Positions 7,695 through 56,720 are shown, counted from the stretch's first letter. The stretch: 64,000 bases of DNA from an uncultured bacterium (GCA_964499705.1 CAZCME010000002.1:310001-374000), one strand, 5' to 3'. Numbers and translations: made by a program. Notes: a model not told the origin generated them from the sequence alone.

Positions 7695-7747
7695 GAGGAG
7701 AGTCTATCATCCGGCGCACGGGCGCACCAGTGGGGATTGATGCGCTC

Positions 7748-11162: not shown

Positions 11163-12224
11163 ATGATCCTGCGGGGAAACAGTCCGATGAAGAACTTCAG
11201 GCGCCTCGCGAGTCGGTGGGGCCTCCTCTTTCTCATTCTTCTCATCACGGTCGAACCGGTCTCGGCGCGCGTCGTCGTGAAGATGGCGACCCTGGCTCCG
11301 AAAAATTCCACATGGCATAAGATCCTGGAAGATCTCTCATCGAAGTGGAAGGAAATCTCCGGCGGCGAGGTCGAGCTCCGCATTTACGCGGGCGGTGTCG
11401 CGGGCGACGATCGCGATGTCGTCCGGAAGATGCGCCTTGGAACGCTGAACGGAGCGGTCCTGACGGCGGTGGGAGTCTCGGAGATCGAGAAGTCGGTCTT
11501 TGCCCTGGAAGTTCCGATGATGTACGCGTCGTATGAGGAAGTGTATTACGTCCTGGAGAAGATGCGGCCGGGACTCGAAAATGCCATCGCGGCCAAGGGC
11601 TTCGTGGCGCTCAACTGGGCCGACGGCGGCTGGATCCACTACTTCACGTCGAGGCCGGTCGCGACTCCCTCCGACCTGATGAAAGAGAAGCTCTTCTCGT
11701 GGGCCGGAGATGAAGCCGCGGATCAGCTCGTCAAGTCCGCGGGCTTCAATCCCGTGCCGCTGCCGGCGACGGAGCTTGCGACGGCTCTGCAGACCGGCCT
11801 CGTCACAGCGGTCGGCGTTTCGCCGCAGGTCGCGATCCTCTCGCAGTATTACCGCCACGTTCCGCACATGACCGACGTGAAATGGCAGTTGCTCCTTGGA
11901 GCCACCGTCATCACGAGGAAAACCTGGGATGAAATCCCGGCGTCCCTGCGACCCGCGCTCATGAAGGCCGCGGCGGATGCGGGGCAGAAGCTGCGCAACA
12001 CGAGCCGGAACAGCTACACGAGCAATATCTCCGCGATGAAGACGCGGGGCCTGACCGTGGTGCCCGTCAACGACGCGGACCGCGCCAAGTGGGTCCGGAT
12101 CGCGGAGTCCACGTATCCCGGCATCCGGGGAACGATCGTTCCGGCCGCAGCCTTCGACGAGGCGCTCAGGCATCGCGGCGATTACCGCAAAGGAGCCCGC
12201 GCATCCGCAACGATTCCCCGTTGA
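11163..12224 (+). CDS. TRAP substrate-binding protein DctP (TatP type)
   Basis: KMATLAPKNSTW, YAGGVAGD..DVVRKMRLG, ALQTGLV; start may be 11187. Confidence 0.88.
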   Translation: MILRGNSPMKNFRRLASRWGLLFLILLITVEPVSARVVVKMATLAPKNSTWHKILEDLSSKWKEISGGEVELRIYAGGVAGDDRDVVRKMRLGTLNGAVLTAVGVSEIEKSVFALEVPMMYASYEEVYYVLEKMRPGLENAIAAKGFVALNWADGGWIHYFTSRPVATPSDLMKEKLFSWAGDEAADQLVKSAGFNPVPLPATELATALQTGLVTAVGVSPQVAILSQYYRHVPHMTDVKWQLLLGATVITRKTWDEIPASLRPALMKAAADAGQKLRNTSRNSYTSNISAMKTRGLTVVPVNDADRAKWVRIAESTYPGIRGTIVPAAAFDEALRHRGDYRKGARASATIPR

Positions 12225-14179
12225 ACGCATCCGTACCTTTCACGCGCATCTTCAACGTCCTCCTTGATTCGCTCCTCGTTCTCGCCATCTTCCTCGCAAC
12301 CTTCTTTCCGCTCGTGGATGCCGTCGGCAGGGTCTGGGGAGGGTTCTATATCCCGGGATCCGCGACCTGGGTCCAGCAGGTGACGCTCTGGCTGGCTTTC
12401 CTGGGAGGGCTCATTGCGACGCGCGAAGGACAACATCTCCGGCTTTCGACGGCGGAGTTTTTCGGAGAAGGTAAAGTCCGGCGCGCGGCCAACATCGTGG
12501 CGTACTCCGTCGCCGCCTCGGTCGTGGCGGTCCTCGCGTATGCCAGCCTGGAACTGGTGAAGGCGGATCGCGAGCAGGGGAAACTGCTGACCGGCGGCGT
12601 GCCGGAATGGATGAGCGAATGCGTGATGCCGGTGGCGTGGTCGATCATGTCGCTCTGGTTCATCGCGAAGGCTTCGGATCGCTGGTTCGGCCGGATCGTC
12701 GCCCTGTGCGTGGTCGTCGCCACGTTCGGCCTCGCGACGATCCAGGATCAATCCCCGGTTTTTCTCTGGCCGCTTGTGCTGGTGATCCTCTGCGGCGCAT
12801 TTCTCGGCGCGCCCGTTTTCAGCGCGATGGGCGGCATTGCTCTTCTTTTCTTCTTCCATGACGGAACGCCCGTTGGAGCGGTCTCCGCCGAGGTTTACCG
12901 CCTGATCGCCTCGCCCACGATTCCCGCGATTCCGCTGCTGACGGCGGCAGGATACATCCTCGCGGAGGGAAGATCGGCCGCGCGCCTTGTCCGATTCTTC
13001 CAGTCGCTTGTGGGGTGGATGCCCGGAGGCATGGCCGTCATGGTCGCCGGCGTCTGCGCCATCTTCACGACGTTCACCGGAGGTTCGGGCGTCACGATCA
13101 TCGCGCTCGGTGGGCTCGTCCTGCCGATGCTCATGAAAGCAAAATACCCGGAAGGCTTTTCTCTGGGTCTCGTCACCGCGTCAGGAAGTCTCGGGCTCCT
13201 CTTTCCCCCCAGCCTCCCCGTCATCTTGTACAGCGTCGTGGCGGGCACGCCGGCCGATTCTCTCTACCTCGCGGGCCTCGTTCCAGGAATGCTTCTGGTT
13301 GTGCTCGTCGCCGTTTACGGAATCTTTACGGGCTTCAGGACGAAGGAGGCTCCGCAGAAATTCGTATTCCGGGAAGCCGTCGCGGCAACATGGGGCGCGA
13401 AGTGGGAACTGTCCCTGCCGGTCCTCGTGATCGTCCTCTTCGGCAGCGGATGGGCCTCGATCGTCGAAGCCTCCGCCGCCGCGTGCGCCTACTCCGTTCT
13501 CATCTCCTGCGCGGTCACGCGGGATCTTTCGTTGAAAGCTCTCCCGGGAGTGCTGGGCAAGGCGGGCGCGCTCCTCGGCGCCGTGCTGATGCTCCTCTCG
13601 GTCGCCATGGGTCTCACCAGCTATCTCGTGGACGCGCAGATTCCCGATGAGCTCCTCGCGTGGGTGACGGAACATATCCACTCGCCGGTTGTTTTTCTCC
13701 TGGCGCTCAACGTGATCCTCCTTGTTCTCGGCAGCGTGCTCGAGATCTATTCCGCGATCATAATTCTCGTGCCGCTTCTCGTGCCGATGGGGGAGGCCTT
13801 CGGTGTCGATCCCATTCATATGGGCGTCATCTTCCTCGCCAATCTCGAACTCGGTTTCCTCTTCCCGCCCGTCGGCCTCAATCTCTTCCTCTCCTCCGCG
13901 CGCTTTTCCAGGCCCTTGACGGAACTCTACCGTCATGTCGTTCCGTTTCTTGTCATCCTCGGCCTGGGCGTTCTCCTCATCACCTATGTCCCGGATCTCT
14001 CGCTGGGAATCCTGAAGATGCTCGGTCGCTACGAGCCTCCCGTCGCGGCCGAAGCGGAGACCGAGTCATGGATGGAAGGGGAGATCGTTCCCGAAGGGGA
14101 TGCGATCCCGGAGTACGTGCCGGAGGAGATGGAAACCGCCGGGGACACGGGAGGCGCCTCACCGGATGCGGTGAAATAG
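12221..14179 (+). CDS. TRAP transporter fused small/large permease (DctQ-DctM)
   Basis: Polytopic; DctQ-like HL motif then DctM motifs TFTGGSGVTI, SGSLGLLFPPS, GVDPIHMG, PPVGLNLF; TTG start overlaps DctP stop. Confidence 0.88.
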   Translation: MNASVPFTRIFNVLLDSLLVLAIFLATFFPLVDAVGRVWGGFYIPGSATWVQQVTLWLAFLGGLIATREGQHLRLSTAEFFGEGKVRRAANIVAYSVAASVVAVLAYASLELVKADREQGKLLTGGVPEWMSECVMPVAWSIMSLWFIAKASDRWFGRIVALCVVVATFGLATIQDQSPVFLWPLVLVILCGAFLGAPVFSAMGGIALLFFFHDGTPVGAVSAEVYRLIASPTIPAIPLLTAAGYILAEGRSAARLVRFFQSLVGWMPGGMAVMVAGVCAIFTTFTGGSGVTIIALGGLVLPMLMKAKYPEGFSLGLVTASGSLGLLFPPSLPVILYSVVAGTPADSLYLAGLVPGMLLVVLVAVYGIFTGFRTKEAPQKFVFREAVAATWGAKWELSLPVLVIVLFGSGWASIVEASAAACAYSVLISCAVTRDLSLKALPGVLGKAGALLGAVLMLLSVAMGLTSYLVDAQIPDELLAWVTEHIHSPVVFLLALNVILLVLGSVLEIYSAIIILVPLLVPMGEAFGVDPIHMGVIFLANLELGFLFPPVGLNLFLSSARFSRPLTELYRHVVPFLVILGLGVLLITYVPDLSLGILKMLGRYEPPVAAEAETESWMEGEIVPEGDAIPEYVPEEMETAGDTGGASPDAVK

Positions 14180-30236: not shown

Positions 30237-32765
30237 GTGTCAATGGCAAGACAGAATGCGGCCCGGAACGAAGACGACGAGCGGGTCGTTAACTTTGATA
30301 AGAAACGTCGAAAAAACGAGGAGTCCGGACCCGGAGGATTCCTGACGACCGATGAACGGCGCGAAGCCGTGGGCTTCGTCCTGCTCGCCATCGCGGTCGT
30401 TCTCCTGACATCCCTGATTCTCAATCCTTCCGAACTCCGGGGAATCGCCTCTTCGGAGCATCCCTCCCCCGCCGGAAAATTTGGCCGCTGGATCGCCACA
30501 CGGATCGGCATCATCTTCGGCTTCGGCGGGCTCGTCATTCCGTTCTCCATCGGAGCCTGGGGAGCGGCGATCTTCCAGAGAAAGACCGCGAAGCAGATCG
30601 TCGCCAAGGGCCTGGCTCTCTCGGTCGCACTCATCTCCGCCTGCGCTCTGCTCGGGCTCGTGTACGAAGGCGGTTATCTCGGCGGGGCGTTGGGAGACAG
30701 GCTCGCGTACGATCTCTACCAGTCATTCGGCGTCATCTCCTTCGTCGTGGTCATCTTCGCCGGAATCATTTCGCTCGTCATCGGAACGCCGCTATCCTTC
30801 AGCGAGATCGGAGTCGCGGCGTGGCGCGGAATGGGCATCATCTGGGCCAGGCTCATGGAAATGCGCGCCGCATCGGCGGAGGCCTCGTCCGAGCGGCCAG
30901 TCCGGACCAGGAACGGAGAAACGGTGCAGGCTTCCGTGCCCGCGAAGAAGCAGAAGATTCCGGCCAGAGACAGCGAGGAAGCTCCGATCGAAGGAGAAGA
31001 TTCCGGGAGCAATATCGGCCGTGAGCATTTTGATAATGCGGAAATGAGAATTGTCACGACACCGGCGCTGAAACTGATCCAGAGCGAGCCGGTCAAGACG
31101 AAAGTGCCGGCGAAGAATTCCGTCTCCTCCTCTGATTTTTCTCCGGAAATTTCCGGAGAATCCCGCGATCCGCTTTCGCGCTCGGGGTCGCCTGTTCCGG
31201 CGCCGTCGTCCCAGGCATCGGTTCAGAAAGCCGAGCCGGTCTATGTTCCCGACGCCGATTTCACTCTCCCCTCGCTTGCGCTCCTGTCCGATCCCCCTCC
31301 GAATACGGCCAGTGTCACTGACGAAGATCTTCAATTGAAGGCCCATCGACTTCAGGCGACGCTGGCCGAATTCGGCGTGGTGTGCAAGGTCGGGGATATC
31401 CATCCCGGCCCGATCGTGACGCGATTCGAGCTTGTTCCGGAACCCGGCTGCAAGGTCTCCTCGATCACTTCGCTGACCGACGATATTTCGCTTGCCATGG
31501 CGGCCCGTTCCATCCGGATCGAAGCTCCCATTCCCGGCAAGCCCGCCGTCGGGATCGAGATTCCCAACGGGCAGGCGCAAAAAGTCGTCATCAAGCAGGT
31601 GCTGGCTTCGGATGAATTCCAGCGAGTCCGGGCGCAATCGCCACTGGCCGTGGCGCTGGGCCAGGACATTTCCGGCAACCCCGTCGTGACCGATCTCCGC
31701 CGGATGCCGCACCTTCTTATCGCCGGCTCCACCGGCTCCGGAAAATCGGTCTGCATCAATTCGCTCGTCAACTCCATACTCTTTTCCGCCCGTCCGACGG
31801 AAGTGAAGATGCTGATGGTCGATCCGAAAGTCGTCGAGCTCCAGGAATACAACGCGATCCCGCATCTGCTGGCTCCGGTCGTCACCGATCCCCGCAAGGC
31901 GCCGCGCGTCCTGCAATGGGCCGTGGAGGAAATGGACCGTCGCTATCAGTATCTCGCGCGCATGGGCGTCCGGGACATCGACAACTTCAATCGCCTCGTG
32001 CCCGAGGCTCCAGCGCAGGAAGACGCGGCGGCCGCGGACGAGTTCATCGACATCGATGAAGAGATGACGGATCAGGCTGTAGGCGTGGACGGCGTGCTCG
32101 AGCGGATGCCCTACATCGTCATCATCGTCGATGAATTCTGCGACCTCATGATGATCGCCGCGAAGGAATGCGAGGACGCCATCGTTCGCCTGGCATCCAT
32201 GGCGCGCGCGGTCGGGATTCACCTCGTGATCGCCACGCAGCGCCCCTCGGTCGATGTCATCACGGGCGTCATCAAGGCGAATCTTCCCTCCCGTATCGCT
32301 TTTCTCGTCAGCTCCAAGGTGGACTCCCGCACGATCCTCGATGTGATGGGCGCGGAGCGGCTGCTGGGACAGGGCGATATGCTCTTCAAGCCGGGAGATC
32401 GCCCCAAGCCGATGCGCCTGCAGGGCAACTACATCAGCGGCGAGGAAATCAAGGCCGTCATCAAGCACTACGGTTCCCAGGGCGCGGCCCGCCGTCAGCT
32501 TCAGCTCGAAGATACCACGTCCGAACCCGGCTCCATGAATGCCCTCGCCAACGACGATGACCCGCTTCTGCGTGATGCCATGCGGATCTGTCTCGAAGAC
32601 GGCATGGCGAGCGTTTCACGGATCCAGCGCCGCCTGAAGATCGGCCATCCCCGCGCCGCGCGTCTCGTCGATATCATGGAAGCCAAAGGCCTGGTGACGG
32701 CTCCGGATGGTTCCAAACCGAGGAAGCTGCTGTACGACGAAGCTTATCTCGGTGGCGACGCATGA
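30237..32765 (+). CDS. ftsK: DNA translocase FtsK
   Basis: N-terminal TMs; RIEAPIPGK, MPHLLIAGSTGSGKS, ATQRPSVDVITG, gamma domain SVSRIQRRLKIGHPRAAR; start may be ATG 30243. Confidence 0.96.
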   Translation: MSMARQNAARNEDDERVVNFDKKRRKNEESGPGGFLTTDERREAVGFVLLAIAVVLLTSLILNPSELRGIASSEHPSPAGKFGRWIATRIGIIFGFGGLVIPFSIGAWGAAIFQRKTAKQIVAKGLALSVALISACALLGLVYEGGYLGGALGDRLAYDLYQSFGVISFVVVIFAGIISLVIGTPLSFSEIGVAAWRGMGIIWARLMEMRAASAEASSERPVRTRNGETVQASVPAKKQKIPARDSEEAPIEGEDSGSNIGREHFDNAEMRIVTTPALKLIQSEPVKTKVPAKNSVSSSDFSPEISGESRDPLSRSGSPVPAPSSQASVQKAEPVYVPDADFTLPSLALLSDPPPNTASVTDEDLQLKAHRLQATLAEFGVVCKVGDIHPGPIVTRFELVPEPGCKVSSITSLTDDISLAMAARSIRIEAPIPGKPAVGIEIPNGQAQKVVIKQVLASDEFQRVRAQSPLAVALGQDISGNPVVTDLRRMPHLLIAGSTGSGKSVCINSLVNSILFSARPTEVKMLMVDPKVVELQEYNAIPHLLAPVVTDPRKAPRVLQWAVEEMDRRYQYLARMGVRDIDNFNRLVPEAPAQEDAAAADEFIDIDEEMTDQAVGVDGVLERMPYIVIIVDEFCDLMMIAAKECEDAIVRLASMARAVGIHLVIATQRPSVDVITGVIKANLPSRIAFLVSSKVDSRTILDVMGAERLLGQGDMLFKPGDRPKPMRLQGNYISGEEIKAVIKHYGSQGAARRQLQLEDTTSEPGSMNALANDDDPLLRDAMRICLEDGMASVSRIQRRLKIGHPRAARLVDIMEAKGLVTAPDGSKPRKLLYDEAYLGGDA

Positions 32766-32808
32766 ACCCGGCTTGGGCGGTATTCGCGATTCAACCCGCG
32801 CCCTGAGC

Positions 32809-34469
32809 ATGGCCGGCAAGATCCCCCACGTTCTCCTTTATGCCGCGGGTCTCGGAGCGGCATGGCTGGCGGAGCAGAACGGATCGAACGCGCAGTTCCT
32901 GATTCTGGCGCTCGGCGTGCCGATCGCCGCCCTGACGTCCACGCGGAAAAGCACGCCGAGCACCGCGACGCTCTGGCTCTGGGGAATTCTCGCCCTCATG
33001 CTGCTTCCGGCATCAACGGTTCGCCTGTACCCGGTCCTCTACGCATACCTCCCCGGTTTCGGAACTTCATTTCCGCCGACACGCTTTCTTTTTGTGCTCG
33101 CTCTGGCTGCCCTGTTCGCGGGTTTTCGCAGGTGGGATCCGGGACGCCTGAGGGCCTGGCATTTCGGCCTGCTCTTCCTTTGGATCACGATCTGCGCGGC
33201 CCGGTCGTTCGAAATCTACAAGAGGCTCGGCTACGGGTACGACCTGGCTCATGTCCTGAACCTCCTGGATAATACGCTCCAGGGTCGATTCCTCTTCAGC
33301 GATTATACGAACGCAAGCATCCTGTCTCATCACCTCTACTTGACGCTTCCCCTGCTGGCTCCCCTCTATTTCTTCGTGCATAGTCCTTATCTGCCTCAGG
33401 CCGTGCAGATCCTCCTCATGGCTGCCTCCGCGATCATCCTGCCCTGGGGCATCACGAAGAGATTCGGGAAGGATGCGGGAATGGCGGCCTTTTTTACATT
33501 CCTGATGCACCCGGCCTTCCAGGGACAGATTCTCCACGAATTCGACCCCGGCGTGATAGGCCTGTTCGCGGTGTCGCTTGCGATCCTCGGATTCTGCGAT
33601 CATTCGCCCCCTCTCTTCTGGACCGGTTGCATCGGCGCGGTGCTGTCGAAGGAGCATTTTGCCGCGGCCATGATCGTGATCGGGATCGTGATGATCGTGA
33701 CCGATCAGGGCAGGCGGGAGGGCAAGATCATGGTCGGCGGAGCTTTCGCGCTGCTCCTGGTGTTCATTCTATATTCGCTTCTCTCTCCCGGCACTTTCAA
33801 CTTGAAGTCCCAATGGGAGCTTCGAACCGGCGGCAGCATCATGACGCTGATAACGGAAGTATTCCGCCCGGCCAAGATCGGGTATGTGGTCCACATGTTC
33901 CTGCCGAGCGGAGGATTGGCGTTTCTGGCCTGGCCTGTCGTCCTCGCGGCGCTGCCGGAGCTCGCCATCAACGTCGTGTCGCGTTTTCCCATGAACCAGC
34001 TTGCCTCCCATTATTCCACCGTGTCCCTGCCGCTCCTGGCGCTGGCGTCCTCGCTGGCCGTCGCGCGCTGCGCCTCGAGAGATCACGAGCTGGGCCGATG
34101 GGCCGCGAAATACGTGATCTGCGCCAGCGTGGGTGCCGCGCTCTTTTCGAACCTGGGCCCCATTTCCCATTCGCTCGCCTTCTACGATGTACTGATGACG
34201 GAACGCGACTGGAAATTCCGGTATCTCGACAGCATGATAGCGCGGATACCGCCCGGCACGGTCGGTATCCGCGGCAGCCACAGGCTCCTGATCTATTTTT
34301 CCCGGCGTCGCCCTGCAATCGATCTTTCCTACATCAACTCGAGGGAGATGGTGGAGAGCAGGGATTTTCTCGTGCTCGACGAGTACTACGGCGGACCGCC
34401 CGATGGCTACACCCTGCTCGAAAGCGAAGGGAGGACATTCGTGTACGAAAAAACGCGGGTCGAAAAAGC

Positions 34470-34476
<7 letters not shown>
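32809..34476 (+). CDS. DUF2079-like polytopic membrane protein (putative GT-C glycosyltransferase)
   Basis: GYDLAH, ILSHH...PLLAPLY, LSKEH, HYS pattern and many TM helices; start uncertain. Confidence 0.65.
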
Positions 34477-35788
<1,312 letters not shown>

Positions 35789-35792
<4 letters not shown>

Positions 35793-36784
35793 GAAAGCTT
35801 CTTAGCCGGCGAGACCGGCAGGGAGATCTCGAATACGGTTCCGCCCTCGGCGCGATTGGATGCGCGGATCGTGCCGCCGTGCGCGGAGATGATGCCGCGG
35901 CTGATCGCGAGTCCCAGCCCGAGGCCGCCCGTTTTCGTCGTCACGAAGGGATCGAAGAGCGTTTCCAGGGCGGATACGGGAATACCGGATCCGTTGTCCG
36001 CGACGCGGATGATCCTGCCGGCCGGCGCGCGTTCGACCGTCACCCATGCCTGTGTCGCGCGCGCGTCCCGAGCGTTCTTGAGGAGATTATCCATTACGCG
36101 ACCGAGGAGCGTCCTGTCGCCCACGATGCCGGAGGCGTCGGATGGAATATCGAAGGTGAGGTTCAGGCCGTCCACGGGATGGAACAGCGACTGGATCTCG
36201 ATGGGCTCCGGGACGATCTTCGGCGATCTCGAGAAGGAGAGGATGGAATCCGTGATCGCCTCGCACCGCCTCGCTTCCTCGCGGATCGTCCGGAGATCGC
36301 GCGAGAGCGTTTCGTCCGGATGGCGTTCCAGAGCCAGGTCCGCGAACCCGATGACGTTCGTGATGGGATTCCGGATCTCGTGCGCCAGGCCGGCCGCGAG
36401 ACGGCCGATGGCGGCGAGACGTTCTGTGCGTTCCATCTCCGTCGTCTCCGTCTCCCTGGCCTTCTCTCCGCGATTCATCTCGTCCAGGAGAACCGCGATG
36501 CGGCGGGACAGTTCCTCGAGGTCTCCGGATATGATCCTGCCTCGCCGCGCGGCGACGGCATCGGCCAGTTCACGGATCGCCCGGCGTTCGCGTCGCAGCG
36601 CGGCGAACGGAAGAAATGTAATGACGATGATGGCCAGGGTCAAGCAGGACAGAGTGAAGATGAAGGATTTGATCTCGAGGGGACGCGGCATGTCGGGCAA
36701 CACGAAGGCGATGCCGACGGCCAGCGCGGCAAAGAGCGTGATGAGAATGACGGCGATGAGGAGTGCGTTGAACGTCCGCGACAT
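35789..36784 (-). CDS. Membrane sensor histidine kinase
   Basis: Two TMs; H-box LAHEIRNP, N-box NLLKNA, DNGSG, FDPFVTTK, GLGLGL. Confidence 0.92.
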
Positions 36785-36797
36785 CAGGAGCCTTCTC

Positions 36798-38396
36798 TCA
36801 TCGAAGATCCATGCGCCTTCTCATGAAGCGCACGTTCGCGGCCGGCTCGCCGTCGCGCTCGAGCCTTTCGAGCGCGATATTCGCCAGGGAAAATTCGAGC
36901 GTATCGCCGGTGTTTTCGATCGCGGCAAGCTGGAGAGGTTCGACGGTGCGGATAAAGCCGAGCTGATGCGAAAGACGGCGGCGCGCCTCCGTAGCGGTCA
37001 TCGTGTCGGAGTTCCGCTCGGCCTGCTCCGCCTTCCATAGCCACGCGCGCGCGAGCTCGAAGCGGATCGGGGATTCCGTGGGGGATTTTCCCACGGCGGA
37101 TTCAAAACCGCGGATGGCATCGTCGGGCGAACCGGAACGGGACGATCGCATCGCGGCGGCAACCCACGCTTCGGGTCGCTCCGATTCCAGCTTCAGGAAA
37201 TCGTCGACGGCGGTCGGCGATCGGGACTCGATCGCGATCCGCGCGTCGTAAGGAGCAAGCTCGTGCGATCGAGTCTGAAGACCCAGCGCGTACAGCATCA
37301 GGAGACCCGCCATTGAAAATTCCACGAGCGGAAACCGGGAACGCGCCGGTGCCGGGGAAAGGGGAAATGCCGAGCCTGCCGCATGGAACGCATGAAAGAG
37401 AGGATAGACCAGGCGAAGAGGAAAATAAAAGAGCGAAAGGAGGGAGACCGCTACAAGAAAGGCAGCCTCCGTCCTGTATCCCGCTGTTGCGGTGGCAAGG
37501 ATCAGGAAGAGCCAGGCCGCCAGCGCGGCGCAGGCGAGCGGAAGTCCGATCTCCATGGCCAGTTCCAGGAAATCGTTATGCGCATACACAGGCGAGCGCA
37601 TGCGGCGGATTTCGAGCGGGTCCGGCAGGAGCGCGCGGCGCGAAACAGCATCGAAGGATCCCAGTCCCCATCCCGTCCATGGTCGTTCCATGATCAGGCT
37701 GGAGGTCGCCAGATAAATCGACGAACGGTGCCATGCCAGCGGATCCGAACGCACGCGGCTGATGACTGACGGGAGGGCCGCCAGGAGAAAAAGCGCGACC
37801 AGGGCGATCTTCAGGCGCCGTCGCCCGGGGATGAGCAGGAAGAGGGCCGCGGCGGCCGCGATGCCAAGAGCGCGGGATGTCGAAGCGATCACCGCGAGCA
37901 CGGTACCGAGAGATGAAAAATGGAATAATCGGCGATAGCGAATTATCTGTGCCCGGAATCCGAAGATGCCCTGCAGCAGGATCGCGATTCCGCAATCGAT
38001 CGGTGAAACCATCCAGAGCCGCGGAGCCTCGCGTGTCAGGAGCCATTCACCGCAGGAGAGCACGGACAGGATGATGGCGCAGGCTGAAGAGATGAGGCCG
38101 CGCCCGGGCGAAGGACCTGTCCCCGCCAGATACCAGCCATAGGCTCCGGCGAGAATCCCGCAGGCTTCGAGCGACGGCCCGAGCGCTGTTCCGTACACGA
38201 GCGAAGCGATGGCTCCGAGAATGAGCGGGAGCAGCAATAAGAGAACGCGTGGAGAACGGCCGCGCGTCGAAGCCAGCAGCAGTCCTCCTGCGGCCATCAG
38301 CGTGCCAATCGTTTTGTAATGGGGCGTGGAGAAGAGGCAGGCATGCAGCGAGAGCAGCAGTTCCGCTCCGTGTTCCATTAGAAATCGCTTCATCAT
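36798..38396 (-). CDS. O-antigen ligase (Wzy_C)-family membrane protein with C-terminal TPR-like region
   Basis: STSR, PWTGWGLGSF, YAHNDFLELAMEIG; soluble tail DAIRGFESAVGKSP...RFELARAW. Confidence 0.78.
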   Translation of the reverse strand: MMKRFLMEHGAELLLSLHACLFSTPHYKTIGTLMAAGGLLLASTRGRSPRVLLLLLPLILGAIASLVYGTALGPSLEACGILAGAYGWYLAGTGPSPGRGLISSACAIILSVLSCGEWLLTREAPRLWMVSPIDCGIAILLQGIFGFRAQIIRYRRLFHFSSLGTVLAVIASTSRALGIAAAAALFLLIPGRRRLKIALVALFLLAALPSVISRVRSDPLAWHRSSIYLATSSLIMERPWTGWGLGSFDAVSRRALLPDPLEIRRMRSPVYAHNDFLELAMEIGLPLACAALAAWLFLILATATAGYRTEAAFLVAVSLLSLFYFPLRLVYPLFHAFHAAGSAFPLSPAPARSRFPLVEFSMAGLLMLYALGLQTRSHELAPYDARIAIESRSPTAVDDFLKLESERPEAWVAAAMRSSRSGSPDDAIRGFESAVGKSPTESPIRFELARAWLWKAEQAERNSDTMTATEARRRLSHQLGFIRTVEPLQLAAIENTGDTLEFSLANIALERLERDGEPAANVRFMRRRMDLR

Positions 38397-39973
38397 GTTT
38401 CGGCTGGTGCCGTCGGCGCGCGCTCCACGCGGTTTCTGCCGGACTGCTTGGCGCGATAGAGCGCCTGGTCGGCGCGCTTCAATGTTTCTTCGGGATCCTC
38501 CCTGCCGCAGGAGCTCGCGACGCCCAGGGACGCGGTGAGGGAAATCTCCTTATCGAAGAAAACGAAGGGCGTCTTCTCGATGCTGAGCCTGATACCTTCC
38601 GCCTGCGCCGCGGCGAACTCCATGTCGTCGTCCGGCGTGAGGAGCACGAATTCCTCGCCTCCCAGGCGATAGGCGACTCCGCCGGACTGCTCGCGCAGTA
38701 TGCGCGCAACCAGCCGGATCGCCGCGTCTCCCGCGTCATGACCATACGTGTCGTTGATCGTCTTGAACCGGTCGATGTCGGCGATGATGACCGTGCGCTT
38801 GCGATCGCGCGTGGATTCCAGTTCGCGCGTGCAGAGCTCCCTGCGAAAGAGCCCCGTCAGGCCGTCGACGGCGGCCGCCTGGTAATTGAGCACGCGGTCG
38901 AGGGCGATCCGGAGACTGCGGCCGAGAATTTCCGCGGCCGTCCTGGAGACCTGTTCCGGGAAGAGCGCGATGCAGCAGCTCGCAATCGGCACGATGATGG
39001 AGGTCCCGGGCAGGAGGCGGACGGTCTCGTTCTCCAGGGCAATCTCCCCTTCCGTCTCGGTTCCCGTTTCCAGGATCCGCCGCACATCATCGGAGACCGG
39101 ATGCTCATCGAGCCAGAAGGACGCAGCGCTCGAATGAAGCTGGCGGATGGAGGCGTCGACACAACGGCGGAACGCGGCCATGGAATCTCCCGCATTCATG
39201 AGTATTTCCACCGCACAGAAGAGGCGGAAGAGCTCGTTGGGCCGCTTGCCGCCCGGCACGGTACGTCTGGCCTCATCCCGCCATGCCGCGTCGCAGATGG
39301 TCGCATACGAGCAGAAGAGGCAATGACGCTCGGGTTTCGGAGCGAATTCCTTGTCCGCCTCCATCGTCGCGCAGAGCCGGCTGACGTCGCCCTCGATGCG
39401 GCGCGCGTCTTCGGCAACGATTTCATGAATTCCATCGAGCTCACCGAGCTGGATGATGCGCACTGCGGCGACGGATTTCTGGAAGATCTTCGCCACGGCC
39501 GCAGCGTAGATCTGGAGCCCCCAGTCGCCATGAACCGGCTTGTGCGCTCCGAGCGCGTAGTCGATCACGACCAGGGAGCCGTTCGATTCGTCGATGCGGT
39601 CGATCCGGCCCCGGAGTCGTGATCCGGCGAAGGGATGTTCGAAGGAGTAGGCGAAGCGGACGGGATTTCCCGAGGAAATATGCGAGAAGGATTCCCAGAG
39701 CATCCATCGCGCCTTGTGATAGGAATCCGCCGCATGCCGGGAGTCGCTGAAGAGATGCGGGTCCCAGTGCGCGGAGAGCGCCGCATCGAGCAGGGACCAA
39801 TCGCCGCCGGCTCCGGCGTGATAATCCGCCAGCGCGGCATGAATGATGTTGGAGAGGCCGAATCGCTTCGACTGTTCCTCCCGGTCCTGAGGCAGATGCT
39901 CGACGTTCGTGAAATAAAATTTGCGCGGACAGGACAGGTAGGTGTTGATGCCCGATACGGAAAACGATCTCAT
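38393..39973 (-). CDS. Fusion of PD-(D/E)XK (AddB/Cas4-like) nuclease domain and GGDEF diguanylate cyclase
   Basis: FSVSGINTYLSCPRKFY, IIHAAL, LRGRIDRID, VIDYA, LQIYA, CLFCSYATIC; then DGLTGLFRR, DIDRFKTINDTYGHDAGD, YRLGGEEF, ADQALYRAKQSGRNRV. Confidence 0.88.
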   Translation of the reverse strand: MRSFSVSGINTYLSCPRKFYFTNVEHLPQDREEQSKRFGLSNIIHAALADYHAGAGGDWSLLDAALSAHWDPHLFSDSRHAADSYHKARWMLWESFSHISSGNPVRFAYSFEHPFAGSRLRGRIDRIDESNGSLVVIDYALGAHKPVHGDWGLQIYAAAVAKIFQKSVAAVRIIQLGELDGIHEIVAEDARRIEGDVSRLCATMEADKEFAPKPERHCLFCSYATICDAAWRDEARRTVPGGKRPNELFRLFCAVEILMNAGDSMAAFRRCVDASIRQLHSSAASFWLDEHPVSDDVRRILETGTETEGEIALENETVRLLPGTSIIVPIASCCIALFPEQVSRTAAEILGRSLRIALDRVLNYQAAAVDGLTGLFRRELCTRELESTRDRKRTVIIADIDRFKTINDTYGHDAGDAAIRLVARILREQSGGVAYRLGGEEFVLLTPDDDMEFAAAQAEGIRLSIEKTPFVFFDKEISLTASLGVASSCGREDPEETLKRADQALYRAKQSGRNRVERAPTAPAET

Positions 39974-40257: not shown

Positions 40258-40328
40258 GAGGGAGTGTGCTTGGAAAAAAGACGCGGAGAGGGAGGCGTCG
40301 TAAAATGGTTCTCTCTTCTGTCGTGCAT

Positions 40329-40421
40329 CGGAGAGGGAGGGATTCGAACCCTCGGTACCAGCTTTATACCAGTACATCGGTTTAGCAAACCGACGCCTTA
40401 AACCGACTCGGCCACCTCTCC
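40329..40421 (-). tRNA. tRNA-Ser(GCT)
   Basis: GGAGAGG/CCTCTCC acceptor stem, anticodon arm TCGGT-TTGCTAA-ACCGA, long variable arm, GGTTCGAATCC; CCA not encoded. Confidence 0.96.
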
Positions 40422-40470: not shown

Positions 40471-41256
40471 TCAATCCTTTCCTGTCTCGTTCAGAGCCCA
40501 GTCATAATCGAGATGTTGCACCTTCCACACGCCCCGGCGGAGATCGGACTGCGCGGCGGGATCGGAGATATACTTCGCGAGAAAACCGGGAAGGCTTCCC
40601 TCGTTCGCGATGAAGTCGTCCTTGTACCAGTCGAAGAGCCTGGAGAGGGAGAGGATCTTCTTTGTGTAATCGATCGTTGTCCGCTTCGGATCTCCGATGA
40701 ATTTCGTGGTCACCTCGATCAGATCCTGCCTGATGACGAGCCCGTTGTAGGCGCGATTGATCAGAGGTGGACAACCTTTCGCGGCGCAGACCAGAGCGAA
40801 GTGGACCCGCGCGTCCTTCCACGTCGGCCGGATGATCTTGTGCTCGATGTCGTTCAAAGAGACGTTCTCGCCGCCCACCCGCCATGTGTTCCTGTCCCAG
40901 ACTTCAGGAATGTCCTTGATTGATTTAATGGGATAAGCGTCCAGTATGCTTTTCAGCGTGATGGCATTATAGGCATTGATATAGAAAGCCAGCTTCGTAT
41001 TGCTCTGCATTCGAGCCACAGGAGCCGTCGCGAAAGAAGCGACATACAGGTCGAGCGCCTCTCGATCGGCCGGCGCTTTTTTCCAGTCGCGATACCGGAC
41101 GCGACCGTTCACCACGTATTTTCGGAGAAGCGCGTCGTATTTCAGGTGATCGAAGGATGCGGATGGCACTCGGGTCTCGCTACGACCCGGCGAAGCCGCC
41201 AGGAATCCTGCCGCCAGAGCGAGGACGATGAAACCAATGCGGGTCATTCGCTGCAT
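40471..41256 (-). CDS. DUF547 domain secreted protein
   Basis: Signal peptide; LAFYINAYNA, SLNDIEH, DARVHFALVCAAKGCP, LSRLFDWYKDDF, YDWALN. Confidence 0.9.
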   Translation of the reverse strand: MQRMTRIGFIVLALAAGFLAASPGRSETRVPSASFDHLKYDALLRKYVVNGRVRYRDWKKAPADREALDLYVASFATAPVARMQSNTKLAFYINAYNAITLKSILDAYPIKSIKDIPEVWDRNTWRVGGENVSLNDIEHKIIRPTWKDARVHFALVCAAKGCPPLINRAYNGLVIRQDLIEVTTKFIGDPKRTTIDYTKKILSLSRLFDWYKDDFIANEGSLPGFLAKYISDPAAQSDLRRGVWKVQHLDYDWALNETGKD

Positions 41257-41393: not shown

Positions 41394-42701
41394 TTGATTC
41401 GCTGGGCCGAACGCTTCATCGCGACACCTTCCGTTTCGACGGATGGGAATCTTGCGATCGCGGAACAGGCGGCGATCCTGCTGCAGGAGCTCGGATTTGC
41501 TCCCAGGATCGAGATGACTCTTCACGAGGGAGTCGAGCAGGCCAATGTCGTCGCGGAGGCGGGCCGTGGTGAAGATCCCGGTGTGCTGCTCCTGACGCAC
41601 CTGGATACAGTGCCGCCGGGCGATCATGCCGCGTGGACCGCGACCGGCGGGGATCCGTTTCGTCCCACGCGAGAGGGAGACAAGTTGTTCGGGCTGGGTT
41701 CCGCCGACGCCAAGGTGGATTTCGTCTGCAAGGCGTTTGCGCTCGCTTCGCTGGAGCCCGACTGCCTGAAGCGCCGCGTCCGGATCGCGGGAACATTCGG
41801 CGAGGAGATAGGATTGCTCGGCACGCGCTACCTGCTTCTCAGCGAGGGAACGAAGGGTTTTGGATATGCGCTCGTGAGCGAACCATCCGAGCTGTCCTGC
41901 GTTCATGCTCATAAGGGCTACAAGGCCGTGCAGGTCAGGATTCCGCTTATTGAAAATACATTACCGAAGCGAGTTACGGTGACTCGCCATGTTTTCACCG
42001 GAGTGGCGGCTCATTCGAGCACGCCTCACCTTGGAATAAACGCGATCGAGGCGGCTCTGGAATCCGTGGCTCACGGCGATATCTTCGGCATCAGGAATCT
42101 GCAGGGTGGCAGAGCCCGCAACCAGGTACCGGATCAATGTTCCATGGAAATCGTCACGCCGTCCGGGGAGGAAGGCACGGTTTCGGATGCTCCCAGCTAT
42201 GCCGTGGAGCCCCTTGTGAATTTTCACGCCACGTGGAAACATTTTCTCACACTGTTGACCGGCGCCTTCGACGAAGAGTTCGATCCCGCGTGTTCCGTCG
42301 CCAGCCTCAACCTCGTGTCCATCGAGAACGGCGAAGCGCGCATGACGTTCGATCTCCGCACGCTGCCCGGATTCAACGCGGAAGAATTCACGGGAATGCT
42401 CGATGCGGTGGGCCGCGTTTCCGTGCTTCACGCCGATCCGCCGATGGAGAGCGACAAGGACGGATTCCTCGTGCGGGCGGTTCTGCGGGCGCAGGACAAG
42501 GTCGGCTGGAGGGCTGGCCTTGCGACGAAGAGCACGTGCACGGAAGGCGGAATTTTGTCGGCGGCGGGAATCGAAACCGTTGTCATGGGACCGGGCCTGT
42601 CGAGGGGCAATGTGCACAAGCCGAACGAGCATACCCTGGTCTCTCAACTGGGGACGGCCCGGGACCTGTATGCTGAGATTCTTCGGATCCTGGCATGTTG
42701 A
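41394..42701 (+). CDS. M20 metallopeptidase, ArgE/DapE-like deacylase
   Basis: THLDTVP, GLGSADAK, GEEIG, SEPS, AAHSSTP..GINA, TEGG, GPG...VHKPNE. Confidence 0.85.
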   Translation: MIRWAERFIATPSVSTDGNLAIAEQAAILLQELGFAPRIEMTLHEGVEQANVVAEAGRGEDPGVLLLTHLDTVPPGDHAAWTATGGDPFRPTREGDKLFGLGSADAKVDFVCKAFALASLEPDCLKRRVRIAGTFGEEIGLLGTRYLLLSEGTKGFGYALVSEPSELSCVHAHKGYKAVQVRIPLIENTLPKRVTVTRHVFTGVAAHSSTPHLGINAIEAALESVAHGDIFGIRNLQGGRARNQVPDQCSMEIVTPSGEEGTVSDAPSYAVEPLVNFHATWKHFLTLLTGAFDEEFDPACSVASLNLVSIENGEARMTFDLRTLPGFNAEEFTGMLDAVGRVSVLHADPPMESDKDGFLVRAVLRAQDKVGWRAGLATKSTCTEGGILSAAGIETVVMGPGLSRGNVHKPNEHTLVSQLGTARDLYAEILRILAC

Positions 42702-43612
42702 AAACTCCTGCGCTTCTCATGGGCGATCCGGCTTATTTCTCCGTCGTGGGCGGCGCGAATCCCCATACGCGCGATCGCTGGGGACGCCGAAAGCGTGTGG
42801 ACCGGGCACTGGCGATTCGCCAATGGCGCGGCCTGCATGACCTGCTGTCGGAATTCGGGTTTCGCATCCACGTGATTCCGCCCGATCCGGCGCTCCCCGG
42901 CCTCGTCTACCCCGCCAATGCCGGCGTCCGGATCGGTTCCGACTTCATCCTGTCGAATCTCATCGCGACACGCGCGGCGGAACGGGATGTGTATGCCCGC
43001 ATTGTGGAAGCGGCAGGTTTGCGTTGTCGCACCATCGCCAGGAGATTCGAAGGGGAAGCGGATCTATTCCCGGCGGGCGGCCATTACCTTTACACCTCAG
43101 GCGAACTTCGGGACCAGAGATTCCAGTTCCGCTTCGGATTCCCGCCCTGGAAACGCGTCTACGGTTTCCGAAGCGAACCTGCCGCGATCGATGAGATCTC
43201 CCGACTCTTCCCGCCGGGCCCTACCCTGAGGTTGAAGCTTGTTGACGAACAGTTCTACCATGGAGATACATGTCTCTGTTCCTATGGTCCCCATCGTGAA
43301 TTTCTGCTCGCCTGGCTTCCCGCGCTGTCCCCGGAATCCCGCCTCCTGCTGGCGAATGTGTATGCCAAGAACCTGACGGCATTGGAAGAAAGTGATGCGA
43401 TGCTGTATGCCGCGAATTCCTTTGCATTCTCCCGGGATGATAAATTCTATCTTGTCCTGCCGAAGGGCGCGTCCCGGCAGCTCGTTCGCTCCCTTCGGGA
43501 CAACGGCATTTCCATTCTCACGGTGGATGTATCCGAATTTCTGAGGAAGGGCGGAGGGTCCGTTAAATGCATGATCGGCGATCTTGGAATCCTTCCGGAA
43601 TCGGCTCCATGA
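42695..43612 (+). CDS. Amidinotransferase/pentein-family hydrolase (arginine deiminase/DDAH-like)
   Basis: A..QW..L, LPGLVYPANAG, FEGEAD, FYHGDTC, SEFLRKGGGSVKCM. Confidence 0.85.
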   Translation: MLKTPALLMGDPAYFSVVGGANPHTRDRWGRRKRVDRALAIRQWRGLHDLLSEFGFRIHVIPPDPALPGLVYPANAGVRIGSDFILSNLIATRAAERDVYARIVEAAGLRCRTIARRFEGEADLFPAGGHYLYTSGELRDQRFQFRFGFPPWKRVYGFRSEPAAIDEISRLFPPGPTLRLKLVDEQFYHGDTCLCSYGPHREFLLAWLPALSPESRLLLANVYAKNLTALEESDAMLYAANSFAFSRDDKFYLVLPKGASRQLVRSLRDNGISILTVDVSEFLRKGGGSVKCMIGDLGILPESAP

Positions 43613-45072
43613 AAGTCGGCGGTATCGATTACAATGATGACGTGAGTGAAAATCGGCCGAGCTCCGTTTCGCCGAAGACCGTGGGGGAACGCATGCGCGC
43701 GGACCCTCTTCTCCTCAACGCCTGTGATGAGATCCGCCGCCGCGTATCGGTATACAGGAACGAGATCGCATCCGTCCGGCCGCCGCTTGATTCCCTGAGG
43801 ATGGACTACGAAACCGCCATCAGGACCTTCGAGGAGGAACGCGGAGCCGCGTTGTTTTATCCTTTCCTTGGAAGCGGAATCGGACACGGAGCGTACGTGG
43901 AACTTTCCGACGGCAGCATCAAGTACGATTTCATCTCCGGGATCGGAGCGCATGTTCTCGGGCATGACCATCCTGAGCTCCTGGAGGCTTCTCTCAAGGC
44001 GGCGGTATCGGACACCGTGATGCAGGGCAATCTGCAGCAGAATCGCGAATCGTCCGAGCTCGCGGGACTTCTCCTGAACGAAGCGGATCGCTCGGGTGCC
44101 CGGATGGCGCACTGCTTTCTCTCGTCGAGCGGAGCGATGGCCAACGAAAACGCGCTGAAGATCATCCTGCAGAAGAAACATCCGGCCAGGAGGATGCTGG
44201 CGTTTGATCGCGCGTTCGCCGGGCGGACGACGGCCCTCCTTTCGATCACGGACAATCCCGGATGCCGTGAAGGGATCCCGGTTCTCATGGATGTGGATCG
44301 CGTGCCCTTCCATGACGAGACCGATCCCGACGGAAGCAGCGCGCGCGCGGAACACAGGTTGCGGGAACTTCTGGAAACGCATCCCGGGGAATATGCGGGC
44401 ATGCACCTGGAACTGGTCCAGGGAGAAGCCGGATTTCACCCGGGCACAAGAGCCTTTTTCACGCCGCTCCTCGATCTGCTGAAGCAGCATCATATTGCGA
44501 TCTGGTTCGACGAGATCCAGACGCTCGGCCGCACGACGGAGCTCTTCGCATACCAGCACTTCGGCCTGGATGAATATCCCGACCTGGTGACACTGGGGAA
44601 ACTCTCGCCCGTCTGCGCCACGCTTTTTCGCGAGGAGTATCGACCGCGGCCCGGGCTCATCAGCCAGACATTCACCTCGTCCACGGCTTCTCTCTTTGCC
44701 TCGCTTCACATCCTCCCCTATCTCCGTAACGCAGGCTTCTTCGGAGCGGACGGCAGGATCGCGACACTGTCGCGTGTCTTTCAATCGAGGCTGTCCGAAC
44801 TGGCGGCTCGTCATCCCCGCCTTGTGCGCGGGCCCTTCGGATACGGCATGATGATCGCCTGCACGGTCTTCGACGGCGATCCCGCGAGAACAAGGACATT
44901 TCTTAAGAAACTCTTCGAAGCCGGCGTCATTGCCTTTTACGCGGGAATCTCCCCTCTTCGCGTCCGATTCCTTCCTCCTTTCGCGGTCCTCGACGAGACG
45001 GATATCCAGGTCGTCTGCGATATTTTCGAATCCACGCTTCTGACCTGCGAGGAGGAAGCCTCATGCTCGTGA
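43609..45072 (+). CDS. Class III PLP aminotransferase (ArgD/AstC-like)
   Basis: YDFISGIG..LGH.HP, SGAMANENALK, FAGRT, ELVQGEAG, FDEIQT.GRT, VTLGK. Confidence 0.88.
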   Translation: MKVGGIDYNDDVSENRPSSVSPKTVGERMRADPLLLNACDEIRRRVSVYRNEIASVRPPLDSLRMDYETAIRTFEEERGAALFYPFLGSGIGHGAYVELSDGSIKYDFISGIGAHVLGHDHPELLEASLKAAVSDTVMQGNLQQNRESSELAGLLLNEADRSGARMAHCFLSSSGAMANENALKIILQKKHPARRMLAFDRAFAGRTTALLSITDNPGCREGIPVLMDVDRVPFHDETDPDGSSARAEHRLRELLETHPGEYAGMHLELVQGEAGFHPGTRAFFTPLLDLLKQHHIAIWFDEIQTLGRTTELFAYQHFGLDEYPDLVTLGKLSPVCATLFREEYRPRPGLISQTFTSSTASLFASLHILPYLRNAGFFGADGRIATLSRVFQSRLSELAARHPRLVRGPFGYGMMIACTVFDGDPARTRTFLKKLFEAGVIAFYAGISPLRVRFLPPFAVLDETDIQVVCDIFESTLLTCEEEASCS

Positions 45073-55416: not shown

Positions 55417-55794
55417 CTATCTTTTCTCCGCCAGGAGCAATTGAATGGCCGAAAGAAGTTTCTCCGGATCGTACGGCTTGGGCACGTAGGCGTTTGCTCC
55501 GACGGCGAAACCCGCCTCGATCTCCTTCTTCTGCGCGAGGCTGGAGAGAACGATGACGGCCAGGTTGCTCTGGGCCGGGTCAAGTCGGATCTTGCGGAGA
55601 ATCTCGAGGCCGTTACCATCCGGGAGCATGATATCGAGAATGAGGATATCCGGCTGCTTCGCGGCCAGCTCGGCGAGGCCCTCCGCGAGCGTCGTGGCGA
55701 TGCGCGACGCATAGCCGTAGCCGCGCAGGAGAATGCGGATGTTGCGGGCGAGATCCGGCTCGTCCTCGACGACGAGGATATCCGCCGGAGTCAC
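55417..55794 (-). CDS. Single-domain response regulator
   Basis: ILVVEDE, ILDIMLPDGNG, YVPKPY. Confidence 0.92.
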   Translation of the reverse strand: MTPADILVVEDEPDLARNIRILLRGYGYASRIATTLAEGLAELAAKQPDILILDIMLPDGNGLEILRKIRLDPAQSNLAVIVLSSLAQKKEIEAGFAVGANAYVPKPYDPEKLLSAIQLLLAEKR

Positions 55795-56720
55795 GAGCGT
55801 CCCTGCATCGCGGTCCGCTCCTTGCGCCGGTCGCGCTTGTGCTGGTACAGGGCGGCGTCGGCGTGCTGCTTCAGCGCTTCCGCGTCGCGGCCATCGTCGG
55901 GAAAGAGGGCCAGGCCCATGGAGCAGGCGGGATTCAGGGTCATGCCTCCTGCGAGGAACGATTCCGCTTCGATGGCGACGGAGAGTCGTTCGAGGAAGCG
56001 AGTCGCCGCCTCGCGATCCGTCTCCGGCAGGATCACCGCGAACTCGTCGCCACCGATGCGCGCGCCGCGGTCGGTGCCTCGGCAGGTGGCGATGATGGCG
56101 CGGGAGATGGCCTTGATGAGATCGTCGCCGGCGGCATGGCCATGCGTGTCGTTCACCATCTTCAGGCCGTCCGCGTCGAGCATCGCCAGGGCCATCGCGT
56201 GATGATAGCGCGAGGAGCGCGCCAGTTCCGTGGCGAGCCCCTGGTCGAAGGCGAGGCGATTCCAGAGCCCGGTGAGAGCATCGCGTCGCGATACTTTCTG
56301 GGCTTTCTCCAGTCGCATGCGCTGTTTCATGACGGATGATATCTGCGCCACGAGCTCCGCGGGTTCGAACGGCTTCGTGATGTAGTTGATCGCGCCGCTG
56401 AAGAGCCCCTGCAGGCGGTCGTCGCGAGCGCCCTGGGCCGTCAGGAAGATGACGACGGGCGGATCGTCCATCGCGTTCATCCTCTCCATTACTTCGAAAC
56501 CGCCGAGACGCGGCATGGTGACATCGAGCAGCACGAGGTCGATATCGTCTCTCTCGATGATCTCCAGGGCGATATCGCCGTCCTCGGCGATATCCACCTG
56601 GTACCCTACGGCCTTGAGGAGGATGGTCAGCACCTTGCGGATGTCCGGGTCGTCGTCGACAACGAGGATCCGCCCTCCCCCCTCGTTCATCTTCGGAAGA
56701 TTCATCGCCGCATTAACCAT
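55791..56720 (-). CDS. REC-GGDEF diguanylate cyclase
   Basis: ILVVDDD, LLDVTMP, KPF; DALTGLWNR, NDTHGHAAGD, I-site RGTD, RIGGDEF. Confidence 0.92.
   Translation of the reverse strand: MVNAAMNLPKMNEGGGRILVVDDDPDIRKVLTILLKAVGYQVDIAEDGDIALEIIERDDIDLVLLDVTMPRLGGFEVMERMNAMDDPPVVIFLTAQGARDDRLQGLFSGAINYITKPFEPAELVAQISSVMKQRMRLEKAQKVSRRDALTGLWNRLAFDQGLATELARSSRYHHAMALAMLDADGLKMVNDTHGHAAGDDLIKAISRAIIATCRGTDRGARIGGDEFAVILPETDREAATRFLERLSVAIEAESFLAGGMTLNPACSMGLALFPDDGRDAEALKQHADAALYQHKRDRRKERTAMQGRS

Follow-up and report, generated by a model that had tools for sequence, protein, structure and literature searches.

The 64,000-nucleotide stretch of DNA analysed here (the window) comes from an uncultured bacterium (GCA_964499705.1 CAZCME010000002.1:310001-374000). 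At 38393-39973 on the minus strand it contains a gene encoding a Cas4/AddB-like PD-(D/E)XK nuclease domain joined through a small GAF domain to a GGDEF (diguanylate cyclase) domain. The nuclease domain lacks the catalytic Lys of its superfamily. Judging from sequence comparison and structural models, it is probably a sensor module that controls an active cyclase, and the messenger produced, cyclic di-GMP (c-di-GMP), would feed an operon of envelope-polysaccharide and two-component functions. The family to which the protein belongs is tiny, with about 14 sequences among billions.

Domain architecture of the fusion protein

The features of the gene are listed below. Family counts refer to the window protein together with the 13 other full-length sequences that share its architecture.

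38393-39973 (-): PD-(D/E)XK - GAF - GGDEF gene, 526 aa plus stop, a single open frame
39266-39973 (-): Cas4/AddB/AdnA-type PD-(D/E)XK fold, residues 1-236 (Pfam, AlphaFold2 model, structural matches)
39929-39931 (-): Cys15, predicted first iron-staple ligand (SCPRK), invariant in 65/65 rows of a wider alignment and 14/14 of the family
39554-39562 (-): remnant of motif III, D138-Y139-A140, with the Lys replaced (AdnA alignment, comparison with relatives)
39293-39322 (-): Cys218-x2-Cys221-x5-Cys227, predicted remaining iron-staple ligands (CLFCSYATIC), invariant in 14/14 of the family
39236-39265 (-): variable tether, residues 237-246, with a predicted local distance difference test score (pLDDT) of 61-75 and a mean pairwise identity of 0.21
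38945-39235 (-): minimal GAF fold, residues 247-343 (model and structural matches)
38876-38944 (-): conserved helix leading from GAF to GGDEF, residues 344-366, SRTAAEILGRSLRIA..., helical in the model at 344-364, mean identity 0.53
38423-38875 (-): GGDEF domain, residues 367-517 (Pfam, TIGR00254, PleD)
38648-38662 (-): GGEEF motif, residues 438-442, with no RxxD five residues upstream (family and PleD alignment)
Single residue H45: kept in 9/14 of the family
Single residue D125: kept in 12/14 (the others one Glu and one Ala)
Single residue D/E138: kept in 11/14
Single residue Q153: kept in 7/14
Single residue Y156: kept in 11/14

Translation of the gene gives 526 codons with no internal stop. 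The reading frame stays open in the 5' direction as far as an ATG at 40210, which would give 605 residues. Met-39973 is taken as the start because 11 of the 12 aligned homologues begin at this column and because an identical 526-residue product is present in the protein database. An earlier note on this DNA had described one open reading frame (ORF) across both domains, and every feature it listed was found where it had been placed. Groundwater metagenome runs contain the stretch, and contigs from four runs in two studies span both domain junctions with 0 indels and no joints. One of the two studies may be the assembly's own source, so the contigs provide at most one independent confirmation. 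A stronger argument for a real fusion than contig bridging is the architecture kept in the 13 other sequences, and the relatives in 5/5 genomes of the phylum are free of internal stops. Together these observations exclude an artefact in which a chimeric contig or a frameshift made one gene out of two.

Residues 3-228 match the Pfam family PDDEXK_1 with an E-value of 1.2e-30 (107.7 bits, cut-off 22), and there is a weaker match to Cas_Cas4 (24.6 bits, cut-off 22.7). An AlphaFold2 model of residues 1-365 has a mean pLDDT of 93.1 and a predicted template modelling score (pTM) of 0.75. Residues 1-230 are best superposed on the nuclease domain of AdnA (Z 18.7, root-mean-square deviation (rmsd) 2.5 Å over 216 residues, 22% identity), with further structural matches to ACE1 (Z 16.3), AddB (15.6), Dna2 (12.7), Cas4 (12.3 and 11.5) and Exo5 (10.6). 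Foldseek agrees, returning ACE1 (E 6e-8) as well as AddB, Dna2, Cas4 and Exo5, with RecC chains among the rows. When the nuclease domain was searched by sequence against the PDB, a single weak match to AdnA came up (E 0.86), which was used for motif alignment only. Assignment as a CRISPR-associated Cas4 was ruled out: the cas4 equivalog TIGR00372 (NCBIfam) scores 44.4 bits, under its cut-off of 65, none of the 12 annotated neighbour genes is a cas gene, and PADLOC reports generic Cas4-domain matches only.

The four cysteines have the spacing of the AddB/Cas4 iron staple, as the earlier note had pointed out, and are invariant throughout (12/12 and 14/14). The H, D and Q..Y motifs said to be retained are likewise present in the window protein, which has H45, D125, D138, Q153 and Y156. 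Where relatives have D-Y-K in motif III the window protein has D-Y-A, and both the AdnA alignment and the relatives place A140 at the position of the catalytic Lys. This Lys-to-Ala change is one case of a family-wide loss. The Lys is found in 0/14 members, and position 140 holds A, V, E, V, T, V, H, H, A, R, T, S, A and V across the family, next to an invariant Y139. No conserved Lys or Arg that could act as a substitute near position 140 was found in the family alignment. Outside the family the Lys is kept, as (D/E/Y)-(Y/F)-K, in all 38 best-ranked PDDEXK_1 domains (38 of 142 listed), and it is also kept in 29/29 fusions of the Elusimicrobiota type and in 2/2 fusions of a second small phylum (G017 and G151), which are described below. 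The window protein is therefore best read as a pseudo-nuclease, one that appears to combine the RecB/Cas4/AddB fold and its Cys staple with a motif lacking (D/E)xK. With the Lys missing family-wide and position 140 variable, the nuclease is most likely inactive, as had been suspected.

Within the nuclease domain 23 of 236 columns are invariant, and the mean pairwise identity is 0.42, against 0.36 for the GAF core and 0.51 for the GGDEF domain. W59, D63, Y85, H86, R89 and W93 are invariant residues specific to the family, and R126 is invariant too. A conserved family-specific helix (78-94) carries the motif Y85-H86-x2-R89-x3-W93. By this pattern of conservation, the dead nuclease domain is under purifying selection.

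The next part of the protein had been described as a GAF-like linker of roughly 130 residues, and structure searches bear this out as a GAF fold with a trimmed core (247-343) and a long helix (344-364). Modelled alone, residues 241-368 have a pLDDT of 93.8. Via a comparison independent of Foldseek, the best match to the linker has a Z of 10.0 (rmsd 3.5, 117 of 128 residues), and nearly all of the 50 rows listed are GAF domains; GAF rows for residues 242-365 in structural comparison have a Z of about 9. The best Foldseek E-value for the linker is only 0.03. A PDB sequence search with the linker profile returned chance-level matches only, and no Pfam profile, GAF included, matches the linker in any of 12 family members, even at E up to 10. 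Relatives P0164, P0217, P0142 and G017 have a Pfam-detectable GAF domain at the same place. Among the folded parts of the protein, conservation is lowest in the GAF core, with 4 of 97 columns invariant. Outside the GGDEF domain, no stretch is better conserved than the connecting helix, in which R344, E348, R352 and R355 are invariant.

Residues 367-515 match the Pfam GGDEF family (PF00990) with an E-value of 1e-32 (113.6 bits, cut-off 23.8). The domain also matches TIGR00254 from NCBIfam (128.5 bits, cut-off 37.4) and PleD (1w25, E 1.4e-26). D399, D401, K404, N407, D416, R436, the GGEEF motif, K509 and R513 are invariant and align to the active site of PleD, where the corresponding residues bind metal and GTP. 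With all PleD-aligned substrate and metal positions invariant, the GGDEF domain looks active, in keeping with the intact GGEEF domain previously reported. The absence of an inhibitory RxxD site (I-site), also reported before, holds for 12/12 family members; the window protein has QSGG at -9 to -6, and the RAID of PleD aligns to a gap plus SGG. GGDEF enzymes work as dimers. A homodimer prediction for residues 241-526 scored 0.18, below the mark of 0.42, a result that counts neither for nor against a dimer.

Family, wider class and gene neighbourhood

A search of 5.8 billion clustered proteins returned 12 full-length relatives and one fragment. The full-length relatives are 512-537 residues long, 37-69% identical, and carry both PF12705 and PF00990. 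An exhaustive HMMER search with residues 1-365 against 1.84 billion representatives gave 972 matches in all at E up to 0.001; seven full-length proteins and one fragment match through the linker, and the others match the nuclease domain only. The window's own genome has one copy of the gene. All five examined genomes of the small groundwater phylum carry one, with 26-47% identity over residues 1-365. In a further 146 genomes, taken from other phyla, no match extends past residue 257, and three of them have nuclease-domain matches (E up to 1e-10). A profile search of genome contigs with the family alignment found unrelated GGDEF genes only, with 80/80 kept loci matching from about residue 258 onward. 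In metagenome contigs a five-row alignment gave 140 pattern matches and no relative, and a contig scan with P0003 gave GGDEF-domain matches only.

The PD-(D/E)XK - GAF - GGDEF architecture is, on sequence comparison, present beyond the window family, and relatives with an apparently intact nuclease site and I-site exist. Ten nuclease-domain matches were scanned; four have PDDEXK_1 and GGDEF, two of these with a Pfam GAF domain in between, and a fifth has PDDEXK_1 and GAF. A search seeded with one such fusion gave 60 matches, 24 of which have PF12705 and PF00990, and four of the 24 are named by source as Elusimicrobia, Elusimicrobiota or Endomicrobiia. The fusions of this Elusimicrobiota type (P0217, P0265-P0288, P0164, P0168 and P0138) are entered in the database only as 'diguanylate cyclase' or 'hypothetical protein'. 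In the second small phylum, 2/2 genomes encode versions of 583-595 residues with H, D, DYK, QxxxY, four Cys and RxxD. The G017 gene lies at 6444-8195 (+) of L177 and the G151 gene on L179. On either side of the G017 gene are a 5'-nucleotidase/metallophosphoesterase and a B12-binding radical-SAM protein, with a serine dehydratase nearby.

Both sets of fusions resemble the window protein in domain order, in the four Cys, in the GAF domain between nuclease and cyclase, and in the GGEEF motif. They differ from it in keeping H, D, DYK and QxxxY (29/29 and 2/2) and in having RxxD, which is present in 26 of the 27 Elusimicrobiota-type fusions with GGEEF (29 examined) and in both proteins of the second phylum. 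Their GAF domain is larger and often detectable by Pfam, their length is 557-619 residues, and the neighbourhood of the G017 gene, unlike that of the window gene, has no Wzy protein, histidine kinase or response regulator. Because the wider class keeps DYK and RxxD, the window family appears to be derived, a branch in which the Lys and product inhibition have both disappeared. The wider class, in Elusimicrobiota and the second phylum, is newly described here and unstudied.

A tree was built from 88 nuclease domains: 14 from the family, 14 of the 29 fusion rows (near-duplicates dropped) and the best 60 of 139 others. The window family forms a clade supported at 100 with a long stem of 0.99 changes per column, and the Elusimicrobiota-type fusions stand apart from it, within a group supported at 95. 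A tree constrained to unite the two fusion groups is worse by 23 log-likelihood units, with a p-value of 0.141 in the approximately unbiased (AU) test. The set used for this test had 40 rows (8/14 of the family, 8/29 of the fusions and 24 others), hand-picked after the first tree and analysed under a simpler model. On this reduced set, a single origin of the fusion is neither rejected nor established.

The window gene is the first of a row of four genes that has identical order and strand in 5/5 genomes; the synteny evidence comes from these five genomes of the phylum. The row and its flanks are as follows.

38393-39973 (-): the fusion gene, first of the row in 5/5 genomes
36798-38396 (-): Wzy_C (O-antigen ligase-like) membrane protein with C-terminal TPR, second gene, 5/5 genomes
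35789-36784 (-): histidine kinase (HisKA + HATPase_c), third gene, 5/5 genomes
34470-35792 (-): sigma-54-dependent response regulator (REC-AAA+-HTH_8), fourth gene, 5/5 genomes
32707-34476 (+): convergent DUF2079 membrane protein, kept as a neighbour in 3/5 loci
40329-40421 (-): tRNA-Ser(GCT), directly upstream of the fusion gene on the same strand

The stop codon of the fusion gene and the first ATG of the longest ORF of the Wzy_C/TPR gene overlap by 4 nt, and the ORFs of these two genes also abut in three of the other four loci. The DUF2079 gene and FtsK come next in 3/5 loci. An rpoN gene was found in the genome. The kinase has two N-terminal hydrophobic segments with a loop of ~10 residues between them and no sensor domain recognised by Pfam. 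In this it resembles kinases of the intramembrane-sensing type, and it may need a partner, for which the Wzy_C/TPR protein is a candidate.

Upstream of the fusion gene, a sigma-70-like promoter precedes the tRNA-Ser gene at 40462-40434. A GACGC...GCGTC hairpin and T-run were seen by eye after the tRNA, at ~40274-40299, where a terminator scan called none. The 3' end of the same tRNA-Ser lies ~90 nt upstream of the relative's gene in another locus (L086). In the locus of the most distant family member (L089, genome G001), a long CT-rich tract of CTTCC/CTTTT units lies within the 120 nt before position 9173, immediately upstream of the start codon. Beyond the tRNA, 40471-41256 (-) encodes a DUF547 protein with an N-terminal signal-like segment, which is not kept beside the fusion gene in the other genomes. 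Next to it, 41394-45072 (+) holds overlapping or abutting genes for an M20 peptidase (ArgE/DapE-like), a protein resembling dimethylarginine dimethylaminohydrolase (DDAH)/amidinotransferases, and a class-III aminotransferase. This trio looks like an arginine/ornithine-type module and is not conserved beside the fusion gene in the other four genomes. The window has one more c-di-GMP gene, at 55791-56720 (-), which encodes a 309-residue REC-GGDEF response regulator (Response_reg E 6.6e-29, GGDEF E 2.5e-39). Finally, 12089-14179 (+) encodes a 696-residue fused DctQ-DctM permease of the tripartite ATP-independent periplasmic (TRAP) type and falls in the 12-14 kb bin, which has the strongest AT skew of the window (-0.258).

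Proposed mode of action and competing explanations

The protein is proposed to be a cytoplasmic diguanylate cyclase whose input module is a Cas4/AddB-like fold, stapled by an iron-sulphur (Fe-S) cluster and unable to cut DNA. The pseudo-nuclease would take up a signal and relay it through the small GAF domain and the helix at 344-366 to the GGDEF domains of a dimer. The c-di-GMP formed would then act on the envelope-polysaccharide and two-component functions encoded by the presumably co-transcribed genes. In the absence of product inhibition, its output would be expected to track the input directly.

Three kinds of signal are candidates. The state of the Fe-S cluster, meaning its assembly, its oxidation or the iron supply, is favoured because no 'chemical' feature other than the cluster is common to all members; it is a serious candidate that nevertheless falls short of probable. 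A nucleic-acid end or a nucleotide, held uncut in the vestigial cleft, is a weaker one. The remaining weight goes to some other ligand or a protein partner bound on a family-specific surface (Y85-H86-x2-R89-x3-W93, W59, D63 and W151), and the family-specific helix motif suggests such a new surface. A bolder and rather tentative form of the proposal holds that the Cas4-like fold has been turned into a receptor, in which a single-stranded DNA (ssDNA) end held uncut, or the reported redox or assembly state of the cluster, switches a feedback-free c-di-GMP synthase. If true, this would be the first nucleic-acid-gated (or iron-staple-gated) diguanylate cyclase and a c-di-GMP counterpart of DisA or cGAS, and the Lys-bearing Elusimicrobiota relatives would represent the still-catalytic ancestral state.

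Several points weigh against the proposal that a pseudo-nuclease governs the cyclase and, through it, the operon. Fe-S cluster binding, nuclease inactivity and cyclase activity are all predictions from sequences and models. Nuclease inactivity is probable, short of proof, because some PD-(D/E)XK enzymes, such as BamHI, function without the canonical Lys. The AddB/Cas4-type iron staple is regarded as structural and fairly oxygen-tolerant, which weakens the case for a redox sensor, and some members lack H45, D/E138 or Q153 (retained in 9, 11 and 7 of 14), which weakens the case for a DNA cleft. Since a look at the operon proteins turned up no c-di-GMP receptor domain, it is synteny only that connects the messenger with the genes next to it. 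A search upstream of the gene in the five loci found no conserved sigma-54 promoter; the window has a TGGC-N7-T-N-GC-like site at -236, but no comparable site is common to all five. The whole genome has 29 GGDEF matches, making this protein one cyclase among many.

Of the other explanations, the one that survives best, though we consider it unlikely, is a cyclase dedicated to sensing DNA. Here the dead nuclease would thread or clamp an ssDNA end as a natural Lys-to-Ala substrate trap, and its occupancy would switch the cyclase, leading from DNA damage or foreign DNA to c-di-GMP and envelope polysaccharide. Such a trap is consistent with a window protein that lacks only the Lys among its active-site residues, and with best structural matches that are DNA-end-processing nucleases solved with DNA (AdnA, AddB, Dna2, Exo5 and MGME1). 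The relatives of the same domain order, with intact nuclease sites in 29/29 and 2/2 cases, suggest that DNA engagement was the ancestral input, and the dead nuclease-like domain of RecC, the protein seen among the Foldseek rows, guides ssDNA. The family as a whole fits this explanation less well. The metal-binding His is lost in 5/14 members, the motif III acid in 3/14 and the Gln in 7/14, placing the cleft under relaxed constraint. Net charge and isoelectric point (pI) of the domain are close to those of relatives, the compared values being 7.10 in the family, 6.26 in the Elusimicrobiota type and 7.48 in other PDDEXK_1 domains, with no useful difference. The conserved neighbours are envelope and two-component genes, with no repair or defence genes among them.

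It is less likely again that the dead nuclease is a relic scaffold serving only for folding, dimerisation or localisation, with control exerted by a ligand in the GAF pocket or by transcription of the operon. GAF domains often bind small ligands in front of GGDEF domains, the bacteriophytochrome cyclase 5llw is among the structural matches, and a feedback-free cyclase could be dosed by expression. Conservation, however, runs the other way: the GAF core has the fewest invariant positions, whereas the nuclease fold has 23 invariant columns including the family-specific helix motif. Nor would a mere relic be expected to persist at full length, with four Cys in 14/14 members, across genomes sharing 26-47% identity.

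A bifunctional enzyme, in which the nuclease still works by means of another residue (examples are the invariant R89 and the His or Arg that some members carry at position 140), is very improbable. In its favour, most members retain the acidic metal ligands (D125 in 12/14 plus one Glu, D/E138 in 11/14), R89 and R126 are invariant, and precedents exist for Lys-less PD-(D/E)XK enzymes. Against this, A, V, E, T, H, R and S occur at position 140 without any pattern, 5/14 members have lost the His ligand, and the long stem branch of the family fits a release from catalytic constraint.

A pseudo-nuclease sensor controlling an active cyclase remains the preferred explanation. Two natural versions of the architecture are at hand. 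In Elusimicrobiota and the second phylum the nuclease site and product inhibition both appear intact, and in this phylum (5/5) the site appears dead and inhibition absent. A side-by-side study of the two might reveal how a sensor arises from an enzyme fold, and whether c-di-GMP can be tied to DNA ends or to Fe-S status. The fixed operon, with its Wzy-like protein, intramembrane-type kinase and sigma-54 regulator, offers a testable lead on the control of envelope and biofilm in an uncultured groundwater phylum.

Comparison with known systems

Input domains of many kinds are known from diguanylate cyclases. A full-text literature search, which covered mostly papers outside subscription journals and is no proof of absence in print, returned no description of a GGDEF protein with a PD-(D/E)XK or Cas4 domain attached, nor of an Fe-S diguanylate cyclase. 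In its N-terminal half the protein resembles the nuclease domains of AdnA and AddB, and Cas4, ACE1, Dna2 and Exo5, with which it shares the fold (Z 18.7 to 10.6), the Cys spacing and the motif II Asp. It differs from these iron-staple nucleases in having no motif III Lys, a drifting His and Gln, a helix of its own at 78-94, and no helicase or cas partner. The nearest precedent is RecC, a RecB-type nuclease fold that has lost catalysis and been kept for another job. Unlike the window protein, for which a cluster is predicted, RecC has no Fe-S cluster; it forms part of a helicase-nuclease machine and is not itself a signalling enzyme.

DisA, the DNA-scanning c-di-AMP synthase, and cGAS would be alike to the window protein only if it senses DNA, as in each case a DNA-binding module would govern a cyclic-dinucleotide synthase; their folds and messengers are unrelated to those of the window protein. 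Among Fe-S proteins, FNR is a known cluster sensor. NreB is a sensor that carries a PAS domain with an Fe-S cluster (PMC13478379). Sensors of the NreB/FNR type share with the window protein a Cys-ligated cluster (predicted in the latter) in the N-terminal input domain of a signalling protein. Their fold is different, and the cluster is the proven sensing element in them, whereas it may be only structural in the window protein.

The closest parallel for the C-terminal half is provided by GAF-GGDEF and phytochrome-GGDEF cyclases (5llw and 5lly), which likewise have a GAF domain and a long helix followed by GGDEF, and the GGDEF domain itself is 40-50% identical to PleD-type domains. Compared with these cyclases and PleD, the window protein has a pseudo-nuclease added at its N-terminus; its GAF core is cut down to ~97 residues, few of them conserved, and RxxD is absent. 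By its sequence the protein is a member of the GGDEF family, and it would be expected to work like other cyclases in which a sensor domain is followed by GAF and GGDEF.

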